This document shows, piece by piece, positions 1 to 34,364 of a DNA stretch of 64,000 nucleotides; positions within the stretch are counted from its first letter, which is position 1, and every line of letters begins with the position of its first letter. A model generated the notes under the pieces. The model made no database searches. It was not told the origin of the DNA and worked only from the letters and a program-made list of their open reading frames with translations. The translations under genes and the position numbers were made by a program. Source of the DNA: Patescibacteria group bacterium (GTDB lineage Bacteria > Patescibacteriota > Minisyncoccia > Phycocordibacterales > UBA2100); NCBI GenBank assembly GCA_038064835.1, contig JBBTSD010000006.1, forward strand, positions 7,669-71,668. The letters run 5' to 3'.

Positions 1-120
1 TTTGGCATCGCTGCGTTTTTGTTATTTGCGGCGGTAACACCGTCAGCGCATACCGTTATCGCTAATGGTCAGGCACAGATAGCAGCCGCTCAAGTAGCTG
101 CAGCTGGAATAACCTGGTAA
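1..120 (+). CDS. 3' end of an upstream gene that starts before the window. The in-frame tail ...AAQVAAAGITW runs to a stop at 118-120. Product unknown.
   Basis: Frame 1 is open from base 1 to TAA at 118-120 and encodes a hydrophobic Ala-rich tail. Confidence 0.3.
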   Translation, partial: FGIAAFLLFAAVTPSAHTVIANGQAQIAAAQVAAAGITW

Positions 121-172: not shown

Positions 173-916
173 ATGAATGCTGTTGTTATTCTCGCGGCGG
201 GAAAAGGGTCGCGTATGGGGGGCGAGATTCCCAAGCCTTTGATCAAACTTCATGGCAAGGAGCTCGTCTTGCATGTGCTTGAGGCGGTACATGAATCAGG
301 AATTTCTACAGCAAAACCATGCGTCGTGGTGGGGAATGGCAAAGAAATGGTAACGCAACTTTTGGGGGAGTCATGTACCTATGTTACACAAGAAAAGCTT
401 TTGGGTACTGGGCATGCGGTTTTGTGTGCGTTGCCGTATATTCCTGCCCAAGCCGAAAGCATCTTGGTGCTTTATGCCGACCAGCCTTATGTCTCAGCCG
501 CAACTATGCAGGTGCTTGTAACGACGCGGGCGCTTGAGCACGCACCACTTGCGATGGCAACCGTGTCAGTGCCTGATTTTTTAGAATGGCGTTCAGCATT
601 TGAGCATTTCGGGCGCATACAGCGTCACAATGGAAAAGTGAGTGGTGTGGTGGAATGGAAAGATGCCACAGAAGCAGAACGGGCAACCACTGAAGTGAAC
701 CCAGCGTACTTTGTTTTTGATGCCCAGTGGCTTCGAGAAATACTTCCCAAGATTGGTAACAAAAATGCCCAAAGTGAATACTATTTGACGGATTGCGTGG
801 CGCGCGCCGCAAAGGAGGGGAAAGGGATACCCACGGTAGTTATTGATGCCAAAGAAGCATTAGGAATTAATACTCGAGCGCATCTTGATGTACTTGAGAG
901 AGAATTTGGAAACTGA
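173..916 (+). CDS. Sugar-phosphate nucleotidyltransferase (GlmU N-terminal / MobA-like NTP_transferase domain only)
   Basis: The N-terminal motif LAAGKGSRMGGEIPKPL matches the G-x-G-x-R-M NTP-transferase signature. At 247 aa it has no acetyltransferase hexapeptide domain. Confidence 0.6.
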   Translation: MNAVVILAAGKGSRMGGEIPKPLIKLHGKELVLHVLEAVHESGISTAKPCVVVGNGKEMVTQLLGESCTYVTQEKLLGTGHAVLCALPYIPAQAESILVLYADQPYVSAATMQVLVTTRALEHAPLAMATVSVPDFLEWRSAFEHFGRIQRHNGKVSGVVEWKDATEAERATTEVNPAYFVFDAQWLREILPKIGNKNAQSEYYLTDCVARAAKEGKGIPTVVIDAKEALGINTRAHLDVLEREFGN

Positions 917-29360: not shown

Positions 29361-30176
29361 GTGGCATACACGCGCGGACGGAAAGAGTACGAGGGAAAGA
29401 CGCAAATTGTGTGGGAGGTCGTTGAAGACCCTGCGCTTGTCATTCTCGAGCAAAAAGATGTTGTCACCGCACACAATATCCATTCAGAAGAGGCGCTCCA
29501 CAAAGGAATCTTTGTTGCGACTATCGCCGAAAGCTGTGCGCGTTTCCTCGGTATCTATAATGTGCCGACGGCATTTCTGCGGCGGCACGACGAGCGCTCG
29601 CTGGTCATGTTTCGGTGCAAAATGCTCGACCTGGAGATTGTCATTCGCAAGCGCGCATTTGGGCAGATTCTCAAACGCATGCCGGTTCTCACAAAAGGCG
29701 AAAAGTTTGAGGTACCTCTTACTGAGTTGTATCTCAAGACCACAGGTGGACGATGGCGCGATCGCAAGTTTCCGGTCGAAGACCCGTTACTGGTTTTGCC
29801 TGAAGAGGGCGATGCGACAGTACATCTGCCCAATGCCGAACTAAACGGCCGCAGTCTGGACAAGATCTCCTTCACTGCTCACGAGCGCCAAGCAATCGAC
29901 GAAGCAGTGGTACTTTCTCAAATCGCGTTCTCACTTTTGACTGACGCCTGGAAGGGTCTGGGACTTGATTTGGTTGATGCCAAAATGGAATGTGGCTGGA
30001 CCTCACACGGTACGCTGATGGTCGCTGATGTGATCGGCCCTGACTCGTGGCGGATGCTCAGTCGTACCGGCAGGCATTTCGACAAACAGCCCTATCGAGA
30101 TGGAGGCACCAAGGCGCTGCCGGATATGATGCGCCAATATCGAGCGCTCGCAGACCTTTCTCAGCGTCTGGTCTGA
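29361..30176 (+). CDS. purC: Phosphoribosylaminoimidazole-succinocarboxamide synthase (SAICAR synthetase)
   Basis: EYEGKTQIVWEV...VVTAHNIHSEEALHKGIF is the PurC family N-terminus. GTG start with an AGGA SD. Confidence 0.75.
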   Translation: MAYTRGRKEYEGKTQIVWEVVEDPALVILEQKDVVTAHNIHSEEALHKGIFVATIAESCARFLGIYNVPTAFLRRHDERSLVMFRCKMLDLEIVIRKRAFGQILKRMPVLTKGEKFEVPLTELYLKTTGGRWRDRKFPVEDPLLVLPEEGDATVHLPNAELNGRSLDKISFTAHERQAIDEAVVLSQIAFSLLTDAWKGLGLDLVDAKMECGWTSHGTLMVADVIGPDSWRMLSRTGRHFDKQPYRDGGTKALPDMMRQYRALADLSQRLV

Positions 30177-31242: not shown

Positions 31243-31476
31243 ATGAGCAACAAAGAAACTGTAGATCTCGAGCGAGATGTGTTCCACCTGTTGGGAGAAA
31301 GGATTCGCACCGAGGCGTCGACACTTCCATCCAGATGCTTTCCAGAGCTCGTTGCAGTAATCGCGCCGCATTTCCGGCTGCCATACCGTTGTGTCGAAAG
31401 CCGACTGGCCGCAATGCTGCATGATGGTCAACTAGCCTACAACAGCGATTGCAAGATCGTGCTCGAGTCTTGCTAA
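31243..31476 (+). CDS. Small hypothetical protein (77 aa)
   Basis: Strong SD ataggaggacca before the ATG, followed by the terminator at 31482-31508. It is an internal start of ORF-track frame 30964-31476. Confidence 0.45.
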   Translation: MSNKETVDLERDVFHLLGERIRTEASTLPSRCFPELVAVIAPHFRLPYRCVESRLAAMLHDGQLAYNSDCKIVLESC

Positions 31477-31481
31477 CCTAA

Positions 31482-31508
31482 ACCGGTGGAATTTCCACCG
31501 GTTTTTGC
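31482..31508 (+). terminator. Intrinsic terminator upstream of leuS
   Basis: aaccggtgg-aattt-ccaccggtttttgc. Confidence 0.65.
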
Positions 31509-31520
31509 TACCCTACACAG

Positions 31521-34364
31521 ATGAAGTATGACCACAGGCGCATTGAAAAGAAATGGCAACGCGAATGGGACGCGCAGGGCCTGTATCGTACCCGAGAAGA
31601 CGCCTCGAAAAAGAAATGCTTCGTACTGGATATGTTTCCCTATCCGTCAGGCGACGGTTTGCATGTGGGACATCCCAAGGGCTATATCGCCACCGATATC
31701 TACTCACGCATGAAGCGAATGCAGGGGTATACCGTTCTTCACCCGATGGGATGGGATGCCTTTGGTTTACCGGCTGAAAATTTTGCCATAAAAAACAAAG
31801 TACACCCACGCAAGGCCGTCGAGCAAAACATTGCACGCTTTAAAGAGCAGCTTTCAAAAATTGGTTTTAATTACGACTGGGGCAGGGAAGTAAACACTAC
31901 TGACCCCGAGTACTACCGATGGACTCAGTGGATTTTTATTAAGTTGTTTGAGAAGGGGCTCGCGTATCAATCATACGAGCCAATCAACTGGTGTCCGTCT
32001 TGTCAGACGGGCCTTGCCAACGAAGATTTAGACGGCGGTGTCTGCGAACGGTGTGGCAGCATCGTTGAGAAACGCCCGATGCGTCAATGGGTGCTTAGAA
32101 TCACCGAGTATGCCGACCGGCTACTTGCTGACCTGCAAGACCTGCCCCAGTGGCCAGAACATATCAAAGAAAGCCAGCGCAATTGGATTGGCAGAAGTGA
32201 AGGTGCGCTTATAAAATTCCCACTTTTTGGAATTTCAGGACAGACTGATGGGAAGCATGCCGTAGAAGTCTTTACGACGCGACCCGATACGATGTTTGGT
32301 GCTACCTTCATCGCAATTTCTCCCGAGCTGGCACAGAAGTGGATTTCGATCGGCTGGAAGGCACCTTCTGGCGTAGCAACCCTTGCAACTCAAATGATAG
32401 AAGAGCGTAAAAAAGCAGGTGTCAAAGGCATTACCGAAAAGAAAGGTAGCGACACAGGGTTGTTTGCTGAGAACCCAATCAATCACGAAAAGATACCAGT
32501 GTGGCTTGCCAACTATGTACTTGGCGATATTGGTACAGGGGCAATCATGGCGGTGCCCGCGCACGACGAACGCGATTTTGAGTTTGCAAAAAAGTACAAT
32601 CTTCCCATGCGACGAGTTGTCGAGCCGAAATTCACTGCAACCAGCGGAGACTCGATGGTCAAAGAAGGTGAAGATTTTGTAAAGCGTGATGCGATTTGCG
32701 CCGTGGTGCGTAATCCCAAAGATGACACCTATCTGTGCGTCAGCTGGAAGCAGGCATCCATGAAAGGGCTGGTGACCGGCGGTGTCGAACCCGAAGAGGA
32801 TATAGTGCAAGCGGCGCGCAGAGAGATTCTTGAAGAAACAGGCTACAAAAATCTACGACTCGTACGCAATACAGGGTTCGCATTGCACAGCCTTTTCTAT
32901 CATCGTCTGAAAAAACAGAATCGATGGGCACGGTTCCAATATCTCTTCTTCGAATTAGAGGACGAGTCGCGCAATTCTATCGACGAGCACGAAGAAGCCC
33001 TGCATGACATAGTTTGGCAACCCGCGAGCAAATTAAAAGATTTTTTCTCGGTCATTGAAGGTACTTTTTCCGTACACCTGATTGAGAATCCGGACTACAT
33101 TTTCACCGGCGATGGCGTACTCCACGCTTCCAACGAATTTGACGACATGGACTCTGTCGTAGCGCGTCGTAAAATGACCGACGCTGTCGGTGGAACATGG
33201 ACCACCACCTATCGTCTCAAGGATTGGGTGTTTTCTCGGCAACGCTACTGGGGCGAGCCAATTCCTATTATTCACTGTGAACAGTGCGGGCCAGTGGCTG
33301 TTCCCGAAAAAGACTTACCTGTCTTATTGCCCGATGTTGAAAAATATGAGCCAACAGGGACTGGTGAGTCGCCACTTGCCGGTATCACTGACTGGGTGAA
33401 TACCACCTGTCCAGTCTGCAGTGGTCCCGGGAAACGAGAGACCAACACCATGCCACAGTGGGCTGGGTCGTGCTGGTACTATCTGCGCTACATGGATCCA
33501 CAGAATTCCGAATCGCTCGTTGCTTCTGAGAGAGAAAAATATTGGGCGCCAGTCGATGTGTATGTGGGGGGTGCCGAGCATGCCACGCGTCACTTAATCT
33601 ATGCGCGATTCTGGCATAAATTTCTGCTCGACCATGGCTTCGTGAGTACCGCAGAGCCATTCAGTCGGTTGATTTCTGTGGGCCTCATCATGGCCGAGGA
33701 TGGACGCAAAATGAGCAAACGCTATGGCAATGTCATAAACCCTGACGATGTGGTGGAAACATGGGGTGCTGACACGCTTCGTTTGTACGAGATGTTCATG
33801 GGTCCATTTACCGATGCAATTGCCTGGAGCACCGACAACATGATCGGAGTTCGTCGATTTCTTGAGCGAGTGTGGCGTCTTCAAGACAGTGTCTCTGATG
33901 CAACAACACCAAACGCAACTGCTGAATTGCACCGAACCATTAAGAAAGTCGGCGAGGATATCGAGCATTTCAAATTCAACACTGCCATTAGCCAAATGAT
34001 GATATTTCTCAATTGTGTTGAGAAAGAGTCCTTAAGTAGGGAAGACTACCTAACATTCATCCGCCTTTTAGCACCATTTGCACCGCATGTTTCTGAGGAG
34101 ATTTGGAGTATGCATGGGGGACAAGGCTCAATTCATATCAATCCCTGGCCAATCGCGGACGAAGGTAAAATTGTCATGGGTGATGTTGTGGTAGTCGTGC
34201 AGATTAATGGGAAAATCCGGGCACAGATACCTGTCGATCTGGGAATGACCGATACTGAGATAATTAAAAAAGCGCGACTTGCAGTCGAAAAGTGGTTGGA
34301 AGGCAAGGAAGTGATGCGCGAGGTCATTGTCCCTAAAAAATTGATCAACTTTGTCATCCGCTAA
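31521..34364 (+). CDS. leuS: Leucyl-tRNA synthetase carrying an inserted Nudix hydrolase domain
   Basis: The class I HIGH motif here reads PYPSGDGLHVGH and KMSKS reads KMSKR. The CP1 editing domain is present (TTRPDTMFGATFIAI...AVPAHDERDFEFAKKY). About 130 aa after it contain a perfect Nudix box GGVEPEEDIVQAARREILEETGY. Confidence 0.9.
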   Translation: MKYDHRRIEKKWQREWDAQGLYRTREDASKKKCFVLDMFPYPSGDGLHVGHPKGYIATDIYSRMKRMQGYTVLHPMGWDAFGLPAENFAIKNKVHPRKAVEQNIARFKEQLSKIGFNYDWGREVNTTDPEYYRWTQWIFIKLFEKGLAYQSYEPINWCPSCQTGLANEDLDGGVCERCGSIVEKRPMRQWVLRITEYADRLLADLQDLPQWPEHIKESQRNWIGRSEGALIKFPLFGISGQTDGKHAVEVFTTRPDTMFGATFIAISPELAQKWISIGWKAPSGVATLATQMIEERKKAGVKGITEKKGSDTGLFAENPINHEKIPVWLANYVLGDIGTGAIMAVPAHDERDFEFAKKYNLPMRRVVEPKFTATSGDSMVKEGEDFVKRDAICAVVRNPKDDTYLCVSWKQASMKGLVTGGVEPEEDIVQAARREILEETGYKNLRLVRNTGFALHSLFYHRLKKQNRWARFQYLFFELEDESRNSIDEHEEALHDIVWQPASKLKDFFSVIEGTFSVHLIENPDYIFTGDGVLHASNEFDDMDSVVARRKMTDAVGGTWTTTYRLKDWVFSRQRYWGEPIPIIHCEQCGPVAVPEKDLPVLLPDVEKYEPTGTGESPLAGITDWVNTTCPVCSGPGKRETNTMPQWAGSCWYYLRYMDPQNSESLVASEREKYWAPVDVYVGGAEHATRHLIYARFWHKFLLDHGFVSTAEPFSRLISVGLIMAEDGRKMSKRYGNVINPDDVVETWGADTLRLYEMFMGPFTDAIAWSTDNMIGVRRFLERVWRLQDSVSDATTPNATAELHRTIKKVGEDIEHFKFNTAISQMMIFLNCVEKESLSREDYLTFIRLLAPFAPHVSEEIWSMHGGQGSIHINPWPIADEGKIVMGDVVVVVQINGKIRAQIPVDLGMTDTEIIKKARLAVEKWLEGKEVMREVIVPKKLINFVIR

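Follow-up and report, generated by a model that had tools for sequence, protein, structure and literature searches.

The leucyl-tRNA synthetase gene (leuS) in a stretch of 64,000 nucleotides from a Patescibacteria group bacterium – the whole of which is referred to here as the window – encodes a protein of 947 residues in which a Nudix hydrolase domain is nested within the synthetase. The architecture is real, widespread and unannotated as such, and its evolution is unexpectedly modular; its function we infer. We have little doubt about the anatomical and evolutionary statement, namely that the fold is genuine and nested, that it is conserved, that leucyl-tRNA synthetase (LeuRS) is its partner, and that it is exchanged as a cassette. 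The best overall explanation, and one we think probably correct, is that the gene specifies a bifunctional LeuRS carrying a self-contained, monomeric Nudix pyrophosphohydrolase. Assignment of a substrate class – Mg2+-dependent hydrolysis of a nucleoside polyphosphate – is more tentative, and we would put it at slightly short of an even chance.

Position of the insert

Boundaries of the insert were defined by alignment to the LeuRS of T. thermophilus (1H3N; residue numbers prefixed Tt). Residues 2-368 of the window protein pair with Tt 3-363 and residues 528-726 with Tt 377-580: between them, 159 residues stand in place of a 13-residue loop (Tt 364-376), a net gain of ~146. Because the Pfam profile of the editing domain (PF13603; 168 bits) breaks off at position 148 of 185, its match covering residues 220-375 and profile positions 1-148, and because the insert maps to Tt 364-376, the insert sits inside the CP1 editing domain and not at the leucine-specific domain. 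The leucine-specific domain precedes the KMSKS loop in E. coli and T. thermophilus LeuRS and is not universal. In the window protein it (Tt ~581-636) has no counterpart: residue 726 pairs with Tt 580 and residue 730 with Tt 637, leaving a short KMSKR region (window 33696-33722, residues 726-734) that takes the same short form in all related loci examined. The loop that received the insert is a surface loop of the editing domain and lies ~17 residues past the editing-site aspartates; CP1 of T. thermophilus is reported to span ~224-417 (Cusack 2000, Tukalo 2005).

These results bear on an initial annotation of the same DNA. Its central observation stands: a hidden Markov model search (PF00293, 55.5 bits against a cut-off of 21.1) identifies a true Nudix domain fused inside LeuRS in one frame, the textbook Nudix box that it reported (GGVEPEEDIVQAARREILEETGY, residues 420-442) matches at every position, and the flanking strings that it quoted are present (AVPAHDERDFEFAKKY at residues 344-359, VLHASNEFDDMD at 533-544 and YRLKDWVFSRQRYWG at 564-578). 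Its coordinates (32650-33170) overlap the insert and extend ~70 nt too far on the 3' side, the insert being 32625-33101, and its figure of about 130 extra residues is too low. It had also placed the insert between the end of CP1 and the next conserved segment, at the position of the leucyl-specific insertion; both placements are contradicted by the alignment described above.

The junctions read ...VVE/PKFT... and ...PDYI/FTGD... (residues P369/K370 and I527/F528). No signature of an intein or of self-splicing was found: Cys, Ser or Thr nucleophiles are absent from the junctions, and a Pfam search of the insert returns NUDIX alone. Recent acquisition of foreign DNA was ruled out, there being no discontinuity in either GC or third-position GC (GC3): values are 0.48/0.52 for the insert vs. 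0.50/0.52 for the rest of the gene.

Identity of the nested domain

The PF00293 match has an E-value of 8e-15 in the full protein and of 4.7e-16 (59.4 bits) when the insert is searched alone. The box, which is the only Nudix box within the 64-kb window, fits GX5EX7REUXEEXGU throughout. A structural model of the insert alone (AF2, AlphaFold2) reached a pLDDT of 96.1 and a pTM of 0.89; in the model of the full-length protein (pLDDT 89.9, pTM 0.80) the Nudix region scored 92-97. Comparison of the insert with the PDB using Foldseek returned Nudix enzymes exclusively, with a probability of 1.0, TMq of 0.6-0.77 and identities of 16-22%. The best matches are small, mostly monomeric Nudix enzymes: E. 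faecalis 2AZW (TMq 0.77), NudI, M. smegmatis MutT1, RppH, Ap4A/Ap6A hydrolases and Rv2985.

Conservation was assessed in the 120 LeuRS closest to the window protein in a collection of 5.8 billion proteins. The box is canonical in 96 of these; it is degenerate with the three Glu kept in 16, more degenerate in five, and in three the domain is absent. The 16 partly degenerate boxes have lost the first Glu and/or the Arg and retain the three Glu of REx2EE. Across the family, G420, G421, E435, E438 and E439 of the box are invariant or at least 90% conserved. So are further positions in the domain: K464 (K96 in insert numbering) is invariant, and R389, G441, N467, L479, E491, H495 and W499 are at least 90% conserved (N467, E491, H495 and W499 being N99, E123, H127 and W131 of the insert). 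The Nudix part has a mean pairwise identity of 41%, close to the 44% of the anticodon-binding plus C-terminal region; the two linkers of the insert are poorly conserved (27% and 20%). From this we infer that the insert is an active enzyme module on flexible or lineage-specific linkers.

Assignment of a substrate by homology was attempted and dropped, since searches of the PDB, of NCBIfam and with Foldseek all gave generic Nudix matches of low identity. A sequence search of the PDB found DIPP/NUDT3 (E ~5e-5); a profile search of the PDB gave lupin Ap4A hydrolase 1F3Y as the best match (E=2.8e-8, covering mainly the Nudix box), followed by 2AZW, NudI, MutT and DIPP. None of the NCBIfam equivalogs was close to its cut-off (RppH 23.8 vs. 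116 bits, NudI 22.2 vs. 95, NudB 20.8 vs. 103, NudE 19.2 vs. 169). Dunn and colleagues reportedly described, in 1999, an aromatic residue (Tyr) 16-18 residues past the box as the signature of Ap(n)A hydrolases. The window protein has F459 at +17 and Y460 at +18, and aromatic pairs are frequent among family members. The initial annotation had put forward Ap4A or aminoacyl-adenylate as possible substrates, or a regulatory role; of these, Ap4A-type chemistry is compatible with both the fold and the profile matches.

Distribution

The initial annotation had treated the insert as a one-off. It is not: 117 of the 120 nearest LeuRS carry PF00293, and the architecture is lineage-wide in Patescibacteria. 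In the 87 proteins in which both anchor patterns were found the flanking LeuRS motifs lie at a near-constant distance (205-218 residues). The search of related genomes that had been proposed was made with a close 12-sequence alignment of the insert against one genome per GTDB species, and yielded 124 relatives. About 70 reference-genome loci across Patescibacteria share the LeuRS–Nudix architecture: most of loci L001-L072 have a Nudix box in a stop-free open reading frame (ORF) with both LeuRS anchors 213-231 residues apart, some end at contig edges or missed one anchor pattern, and clear exceptions were set apart. The metagenome-assembled genomes (MAGs) concerned are labeled Paceibacterota, Moraniibacteriota, Taylor-, Adler-, Uhr- and Komeilibacteria, Saccharibacteria, Peribacteria and Gracilibacteria; the taxonomy given for many MAGs is unreliable. 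In MAGs labeled Bacilli, Gammaproteobacteria and so on, the LeuRS backbone is 40-52% identical to that of the window protein and the KMSKS region is equally short; these MAGs are probably of one clade with the others, their labels being unreliable. An exhaustive profile search of 1.84 billion representatives returned 170 clusters at E<=1e-30; at the looser threshold of E<=1e-10 there were 544.

Separate histories of insert and backbone

Pairwise identities of insert and backbone were compared among 84 insert-bearing LeuRS (alignment A1, P0001-P0119). The Spearman correlation between backbone and insert is -0.03 and that between the two halves of the backbone +0.46, values that may be distorted by the choice of sequences according to similarity to the window protein. 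Individual pairs show the same by BLAST: P0040 and P0106 are 86% identical in the N-terminal part and 84% in the C-terminal part, with 30% in the insert; for P0021 and P0065 the figures are 89, 84 and 38. The window protein and its nearest relative (P0002) are 77% and 68% identical in the two parts and 37% in the insert; against P0114 the window protein is 56% and 50% identical, and the inserts are 66% identical. The window insert is of the 'MKGLVTGG...FYHRLKKQNRWARF' type; others are of the 'PWTTF...YFAAHKDENR' type or of a degenerate 'AWGTFITGG..GQT..AE' type. Because the histories of insert and backbone are decoupled, the data imply that distinct Nudix subtypes have been exchanged, cassette-like, at the same loop among close LeuRS genes. 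Homologous recombination via the highly conserved flanks is the obvious candidate for the route of exchange.

Other sites, copy number and unfused partners

The C-terminal loop of CP1 is one of several places in which this Nudix domain is found. In Saccharibacteria (L025:3263-, L032:3185-, L040:3227-) a homologous Nudix lies before TTRPDT (reference position ~235-247), and the CP1 C-loop is uninterrupted (anchor spacing 78). In L015:1123- and several long LeuRS the Nudix is at reference position ~205, the C-terminal CP1 loop of L015 again being uninterrupted. LeuRS of 1130-1530 residues contain two or three Nudix copies, and in P0012 two different Nudix types occur together at the 205 site. 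The long LeuRS include P0010, P0099 and P0120 (~1520-1530 residues), P0012, P0017 and P0025 (~1300 residues), and P0024, P0026, P0038 and others (~1120-1160 residues).

The domain also occurs unfused. A free-standing Nudix of 163 residues (P0138, on a JGI contig) ends 1 nt before an insert-bearing leuS of 951 residues, in the same YchF-DUF5671 synteny as the window; a second, of 161 residues (P0168), stops 2 nt short of a leuS with no insert in its CP1 loop (L083); and a CP1+Nudix protein of 334 residues (P0253) overlaps the start of leuS in L087. Free-standing clade members of 160-170 residues are found at L082:3451-3936, L083:492-977, L086:661-1146 and L091:5001-5513. The alternative-site, multi-copy and unfused Nudix domains are 36-58% identical to their best C-loop insert, which exceeds the median among C-loop inserts themselves (38%); copies at all sites and unfused forms constitute one clade. 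Among free-standing members with context examined, three (P0138, P0168 and P0253) abut leuS, which is far above chance for one gene among ~1000. The clade is thus a dedicated partner of LeuRS, found at three or more sites in the CP1 region, in one to three copies, or as an abutting gene. The pairing looks functional, given the presence of the same clade at two other sites, in two to three copies, and directly upstream of leuS.

A further set of free-standing proteins (270-335 residues) comprises a CP1 fragment with the Nudix in the same loop (L042:3635-4522, L043:3686-, L023:3689-, L087:4713-5717 and L093:8001-8864; further CP1-Nudix proteins are P0172, P0222, P0223, P0233, P0244, P0253 and P0261). 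Most of these lack editing residues, having PAHI or PAHN for PAHD and no TTRPDT, and several are encoded in low-GC, apparently Firmicutes-type genomes. Two ideas about such genes were set aside. That L087 encodes a split LeuRS – the CP1-Nudix protein serving in trans a LeuRS devoid of CP1 – has found no support: the nearest matches of the adjacent leuS fragment are Firmicutes LeuRS, and fragments of these do have the editing-domain Pfam. Since the L087 gene itself is truncated, this verdict is provisional. Alternative genetic codes (tables 4 and 25) lengthen the short CP1-Nudix ORFs by six residues at most. The search of representatives also returned P0127 (379 residues), in which the Nudix module is repeated in tandem, matching in three stretches, and LeuRS sequence is absent.

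Predicted function and alternative readings

In structure the nested Nudix domain resembles MutT, RppH and the Ap(n)A hydrolases. We propose that it would be catalytically active with Mg2+, and that it would probably form an independent active site tethered to LeuRS, taking no part in the chemistry of leucylation or editing. Its most likely role would be 'house-cleaning': removal of non-canonical or oxidized nucleoside triphosphates (NTPs), or of dinucleoside polyphosphates such as Ap4A. Synthetases themselves make Ap4A from aminoacyl-adenylate and ATP; the aminoacyl-adenylate is a chemically atypical Nudix substrate. Within the substrate class we give NTP sanitation and Ap(n)A hydrolysis about equal odds.

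House-cleaning is favored because of the genes with which relatives of the domain keep company, together with the MutT/RppH/ApnA-like fold and the conserved basic residues. In L042 a gene for a degenerate CP1 plus Nudix overlaps a Ham1 gene by 1 nt and is followed by genes for a Nudix, a GNAT and another Nudix; P0182 starts 4 nt past Fpg/MutM; and the neighbors of P0244 are a cytidylate-kinase-like gene and one of the CYTH triphosphatase family, in a genome that looks ordinary Firmicutes-type. Ham1, MutM and CYTH proteins all handle aberrant or polyphosphorylated nucleotides. For an 8-oxo-(d)GTPase of the MutT type in particular, the support would be indirect, consisting of the fold matches to MutT1 and MutT and of the one family member adjacent to Fpg/MutM. 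Other hydrolases are found within related LeuRS: alpha/beta hydrolases at reference position ~240, a PF06821 serine hydrolase at ~589, HAD_2 at ~635 and, in P0028, a Ham1/ITPase domain, inserted at ~240. P0063, P0095 and P0105 are also among the LeuRS with extra hydrolase domains.

Several observations weigh against this proposal. With identities of 16-22% and no equivalog reached, the substrate is not assignable by homology. House-cleaning alone leaves unexplained the specificity of the domain for LeuRS and CP1 as partner, the retention of degenerate CP1 scaffolds by free-standing forms, and the frequent swapping of modules. A subset of boxes has lost the first Glu and the Arg. Finally, three close relatives of 767-781 residues (P0042, P0055 and P0072) have no Nudix: the deletion also takes the adjacent CP1 strand (GDGVLxNSxxFDG), leaving a CP1 shorter than canonical. 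The gene order of the window (YchF, DUF5671, leuS, cysS on the opposite strand, CorA, S41 peptidase, L9) is shared by the locus of P0042 (L081:4542-6851), and the absence of the Nudix there points to a secondary loss. The module is dispensable in some backgrounds.

The first of the alternatives holds that the Nudix works with CP1, which binds the CCA end of the tRNA, in a proofreading or repair function centered on tRNA or LeuRS. It might clear a pyrophosphate lesion or adduct at the 3' end of tRNALeu – a toxin-installed 3'-pyrophosphate, for example – or destroy LeuRS inhibitors that mimic the adenylate, in which case the frequent exchange of cassettes would reflect an arms race. The module is always in CP1 or borders it, at three different sites; free-standing versions keep the CP1 scaffold even after losing the editing residues; some CP1-Nudix genes abut leuS; and one family member lies upstream of and abuts a thrS-like gene whose product starts with an HxxxH editing-type motif. 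The decoupled histories of insert and backbone, the many subtypes, and the grafting of alpha/beta, HAD and Ham1 hydrolases onto LeuRS fit as well. Against these stand plain family members of 155-190 residues that have no CP1 and whose neighbors are MutM, a further Nudix gene or genes of other kinds; moreover, HAD and one of the alpha/beta hydrolases are inserted in the catalytic core and not in CP1, and there is no specific match to models of defense systems. We regard this alternative as unlikely. A defense-system or phage Nudix was considered separately and rejected, PADLOC and PHROGs having given weak generic matches alone.

A broader version, which we rate as decidedly unlikely, would make CP1 a docking platform for swappable hydrolases (Nudix subtypes, Ham1, alpha/beta and HAD), extending proofreading past mis-acylation, with turnover driven by an arms race. 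It would cover Patescibacteria together with the separate CP1-Nudix genes of some Firmicutes-like genomes; the Nudix, positioned by CP1, would act on the 3' end of the tRNA or on LeuRS-bound nucleotide conjugates (toxin-installed 3'-pyrophosphate, adenylate-mimic antibiotics).

That the domain might be a catalytically silent pseudo-enzyme – a stabilizer of CP1, a nucleotide sensor or an interaction surface – is suggested by the degenerate boxes of 21 of the 117 related inserts. The domain has been lost, too, from close relatives in the same gene neighborhood, and in multi-copy LeuRS one copy is often degenerate (P0012). Yet the box of the window protein is perfect, conservation of the three Glu across the family is 90% or higher, 96 of the 120 relatives have a canonical box, and the conserved R389, K464, N467, E491, H495 and W499 are what an active substrate pocket would keep: a structural or regulatory role alone is improbable.

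Very improbable, in our judgment, is a selfish or neutral mobile insertion that spreads among leuS genes by recombination and brings the host no benefit. Such an element would be in keeping with the decoupled phylogenies of insert and backbone, with the varying sites and copy number, and with the occasional absence of the domain, but there is no intein or homing-endonuclease signature, composition is identical to that of the host gene, catalytic residues are conserved over the whole radiation, which suggests purifying selection on them across independent transfers, and unfused members are kept in an operon with leuS. As for an artefact of assembly, frameshift or gene calling that joined a separate Nudix gene to leuS, a possibility to which the initial annotation had drawn attention, it is refuted and deserves practically no weight: the ORF is continuous and LeuRS resumes in frame exactly where the T. 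thermophilus alignment resumes, the identical protein is found on three independently deposited contigs (NCBI, as MEK7628377.1, 'MAG: class I tRNA ligase family protein [Patescibacteria group bacterium]'; ENA; Logan), and more than 100 independent assemblies have homologues of the same architecture.

The host synthetase and its surroundings

The host looks, from its intact synthetic and editing motifs, like a fully functional LeuRS (Table 1). The TIGR00396 model (leuS_bact) matches the whole protein with 965.4 bits (cut-off 548.4) in two stretches split by the insert, and the Pfam families found are PF00133 (tRNA-synt_1), PF13603, PF08264 and PF00293. Foldseek matched the full-length model to the LeuRS of E. 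coli, T. thermophilus and N. gonorrhoeae (TMq up to 0.77). Among the 87 homologues, the AHDERD editing motif (residues 347-352) is invariant, as are W569, S572, R573, Q574, R575, Y576, W577 and G578 of YRLKDWVFSRQRYWG. The part of CP1 that is C-terminal of the insert is modeled with a strand at 532-534 and a helix at 545-555.

Table 1. Positions of leuS features in the window (Tt, T. thermophilus LeuRS numbering)
Feature	Window position	Residues	Strand	Basis or conservation
leuS, bacterial-type LeuRS of 947 residues with nested Nudix domain	31521..34364 (stop codon included)		+	single stop-free ORF
HIGH signature HVGH, synthetic site	31662..31673	48-51	+	H48, G50, H51 invariant in 87 homologues
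CP1 editing domain, N-terminal of insert	32178..32624	220-368	+	PF13603; aligns up to Tt 363
Threonine-rich editing motif TTRPDT	32274..32291	252-257	+	T252, T253, T257 invariant in 87 homologues
Editing-site motif GTGAIMAVPAHDERD with conserved Asp349 and Asp352	32532..32576	338-352	+	G338, G340, H348, D349, D352 invariant
Whole inserted module: N-terminal strand and linker, Nudix fold, C-terminal helix	32625..33101	369-527	+	replaces Tt 364-376
Pfam NUDIX match (PF00293)	32682..33035	388-505	+	55.5 bits in full protein, cut-off 21.1
Nudix box GGVEPEEDIVQAARREILEETGY with metal-binding, catalytic Glu435, Glu438, Glu439	32778..32846	420-442	+	
Family-specific positions past the box	32895..33017	F459/Y460, K464, N467, R468, E491, H495, W499	+	
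CP1 editing domain, C-terminal of insert	33102..33209	528-563	+	aligns from Tt 377
YRLKDWVFSRQRYWG, return from CP1 to catalytic core	33210..33254	564-578	+	Tt alignment, motif location
KMSKS-type loop KMSKR (last residue R, not S)	33708..33722	730-734	+	conserved across 87 homologues
Anticodon-binding domain	33921..34241	801-907	+	PF08264, 74.3 bits

Upstream of leuS, a terminator-like hairpin at ~31480-31506 (ACCGGTGG-AATTT-CCACCGGT, followed by TTTTT) leaves ~15 nt before the ATG (31521); a small ORF preceding it (31246-31476) has no Pfam match. Between YchF and DUF5671 there is a SAICAR-synthetase-like gene (29361-30176, + strand; PF01259, 119 bits); genes of purine biosynthesis are usually sparse in Patescibacteria. 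ARAGORN found no tRNA or tmRNA gene anywhere in the window (1-64000).

Significance and comparison with known systems

Gain of whole catalytic domains by synthetases is well known in eukaryotes; bacterial examples are rare, and it is unusual for the added domain to be nested within an editing domain. In the present case the enzyme is essential, it belongs to a very large and mostly uncultured radiation, and it reproducibly carries a second, predicted active site. Operon forms without fusion, other insertion sites and multiple copies all strengthen the pairing. It offers a testable link between translation quality control and hydrolysis of the nucleotide pool or of nucleotide signals in minimal genomes, and the decoupling of insert from backbone provides a natural system in which to study in-frame exchange of domains at a fixed loop. 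The permissive insertion site in CP1 could serve protein engineering, and the insert could act as a lineage marker for Patescibacteria LeuRS. Because of the insert, annotation pipelines fail to name such proteins LeuRS: that of NCBI calls the window protein only 'class I tRNA ligase family protein'.

The initial annotation knew of no description of this architecture, and in the literature searched (LeuRS or aminoacyl-tRNA synthetase with Nudix or candidate phyla radiation) we likewise found none, most subscription journals having been outside reach, so that this is absence of evidence. The scan of the window protein against NCBIfam turned up no curated LeuRS–Nudix model.

Measured against known enzymes, the host belongs to bacterial LeuRS, and the insert to the Nudix superfamily but to no characterized subfamily. 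The window protein has the same domain order and motifs as canonical LeuRS (T. thermophilus 1H3N/2BYT, E. coli 4AQ7/4ARC, N. gonorrhoeae 6Q89), sharing the Rossmann core, the HIGH and KMSKS-type loops, the Thr-rich and Asp motifs of CP1, and the anticodon-binding and C-terminal domains (phmmer E ~1e-200; Foldseek alignments at 32-36% identity). It differs in having a 159-residue Nudix for a 13-residue loop, no leucine-specific domain, and KMSKR for KMSKS. The insert, for its part, resembles small monomeric Nudix enzymes (MutT/MutT1, NudI, RppH, NUDT2, 1F3Y, Aquifex 3I7U, T. thermophilus Ndx1, E. faecalis 2AZW) in its alpha/beta/alpha fold of ~140 residues, its canonical box, and the absence of a dimerization or accessory domain. 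Unlike these it is nested in another enzyme, is 16-22% identical to them, and has conserved residues of its own (K464, N467, E491, H495 and W499).

The free-standing CP1(+Nudix) proteins of related loci are, like the trans-editing proteins AlaX, YbaK/ProX, ThrRS-ed and DTD, homologues of editing domains encoded apart from the synthetase; unlike them, most lack editing residues. Literature searched on free-standing CP1 editing proteins yielded no description of such homologues, and a figure of free-standing editing enzymes shows CP1 solely within LeuRS, ValRS and IleRS (PMC11295145).

The nearest architectural analogues are of two kinds. In NadM-Nudix fusions a HIGH-motif nucleotidyltransferase is joined to a Nudix domain (PMC7824862): as in the window protein, an adenylate-forming enzyme of the HIGH superfamily is covalently joined to a Nudix hydrolase potentially able to destroy a nucleotide product, but the NadM fusion is end-to-end and belongs to NAD metabolism, whereas the Nudix of the window protein is nested in the editing domain of a synthetase. 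The second is NCBIfam NF040702 ('ileS_w_GNAT'), a bacterial class Ia synthetase with an extra catalytic domain that is curated as an exception model; there the combination is IleRS with an N-acetyltransferase, and here it is LeuRS with a Nudix. In neither analogue is the second enzyme nested in an editing domain.

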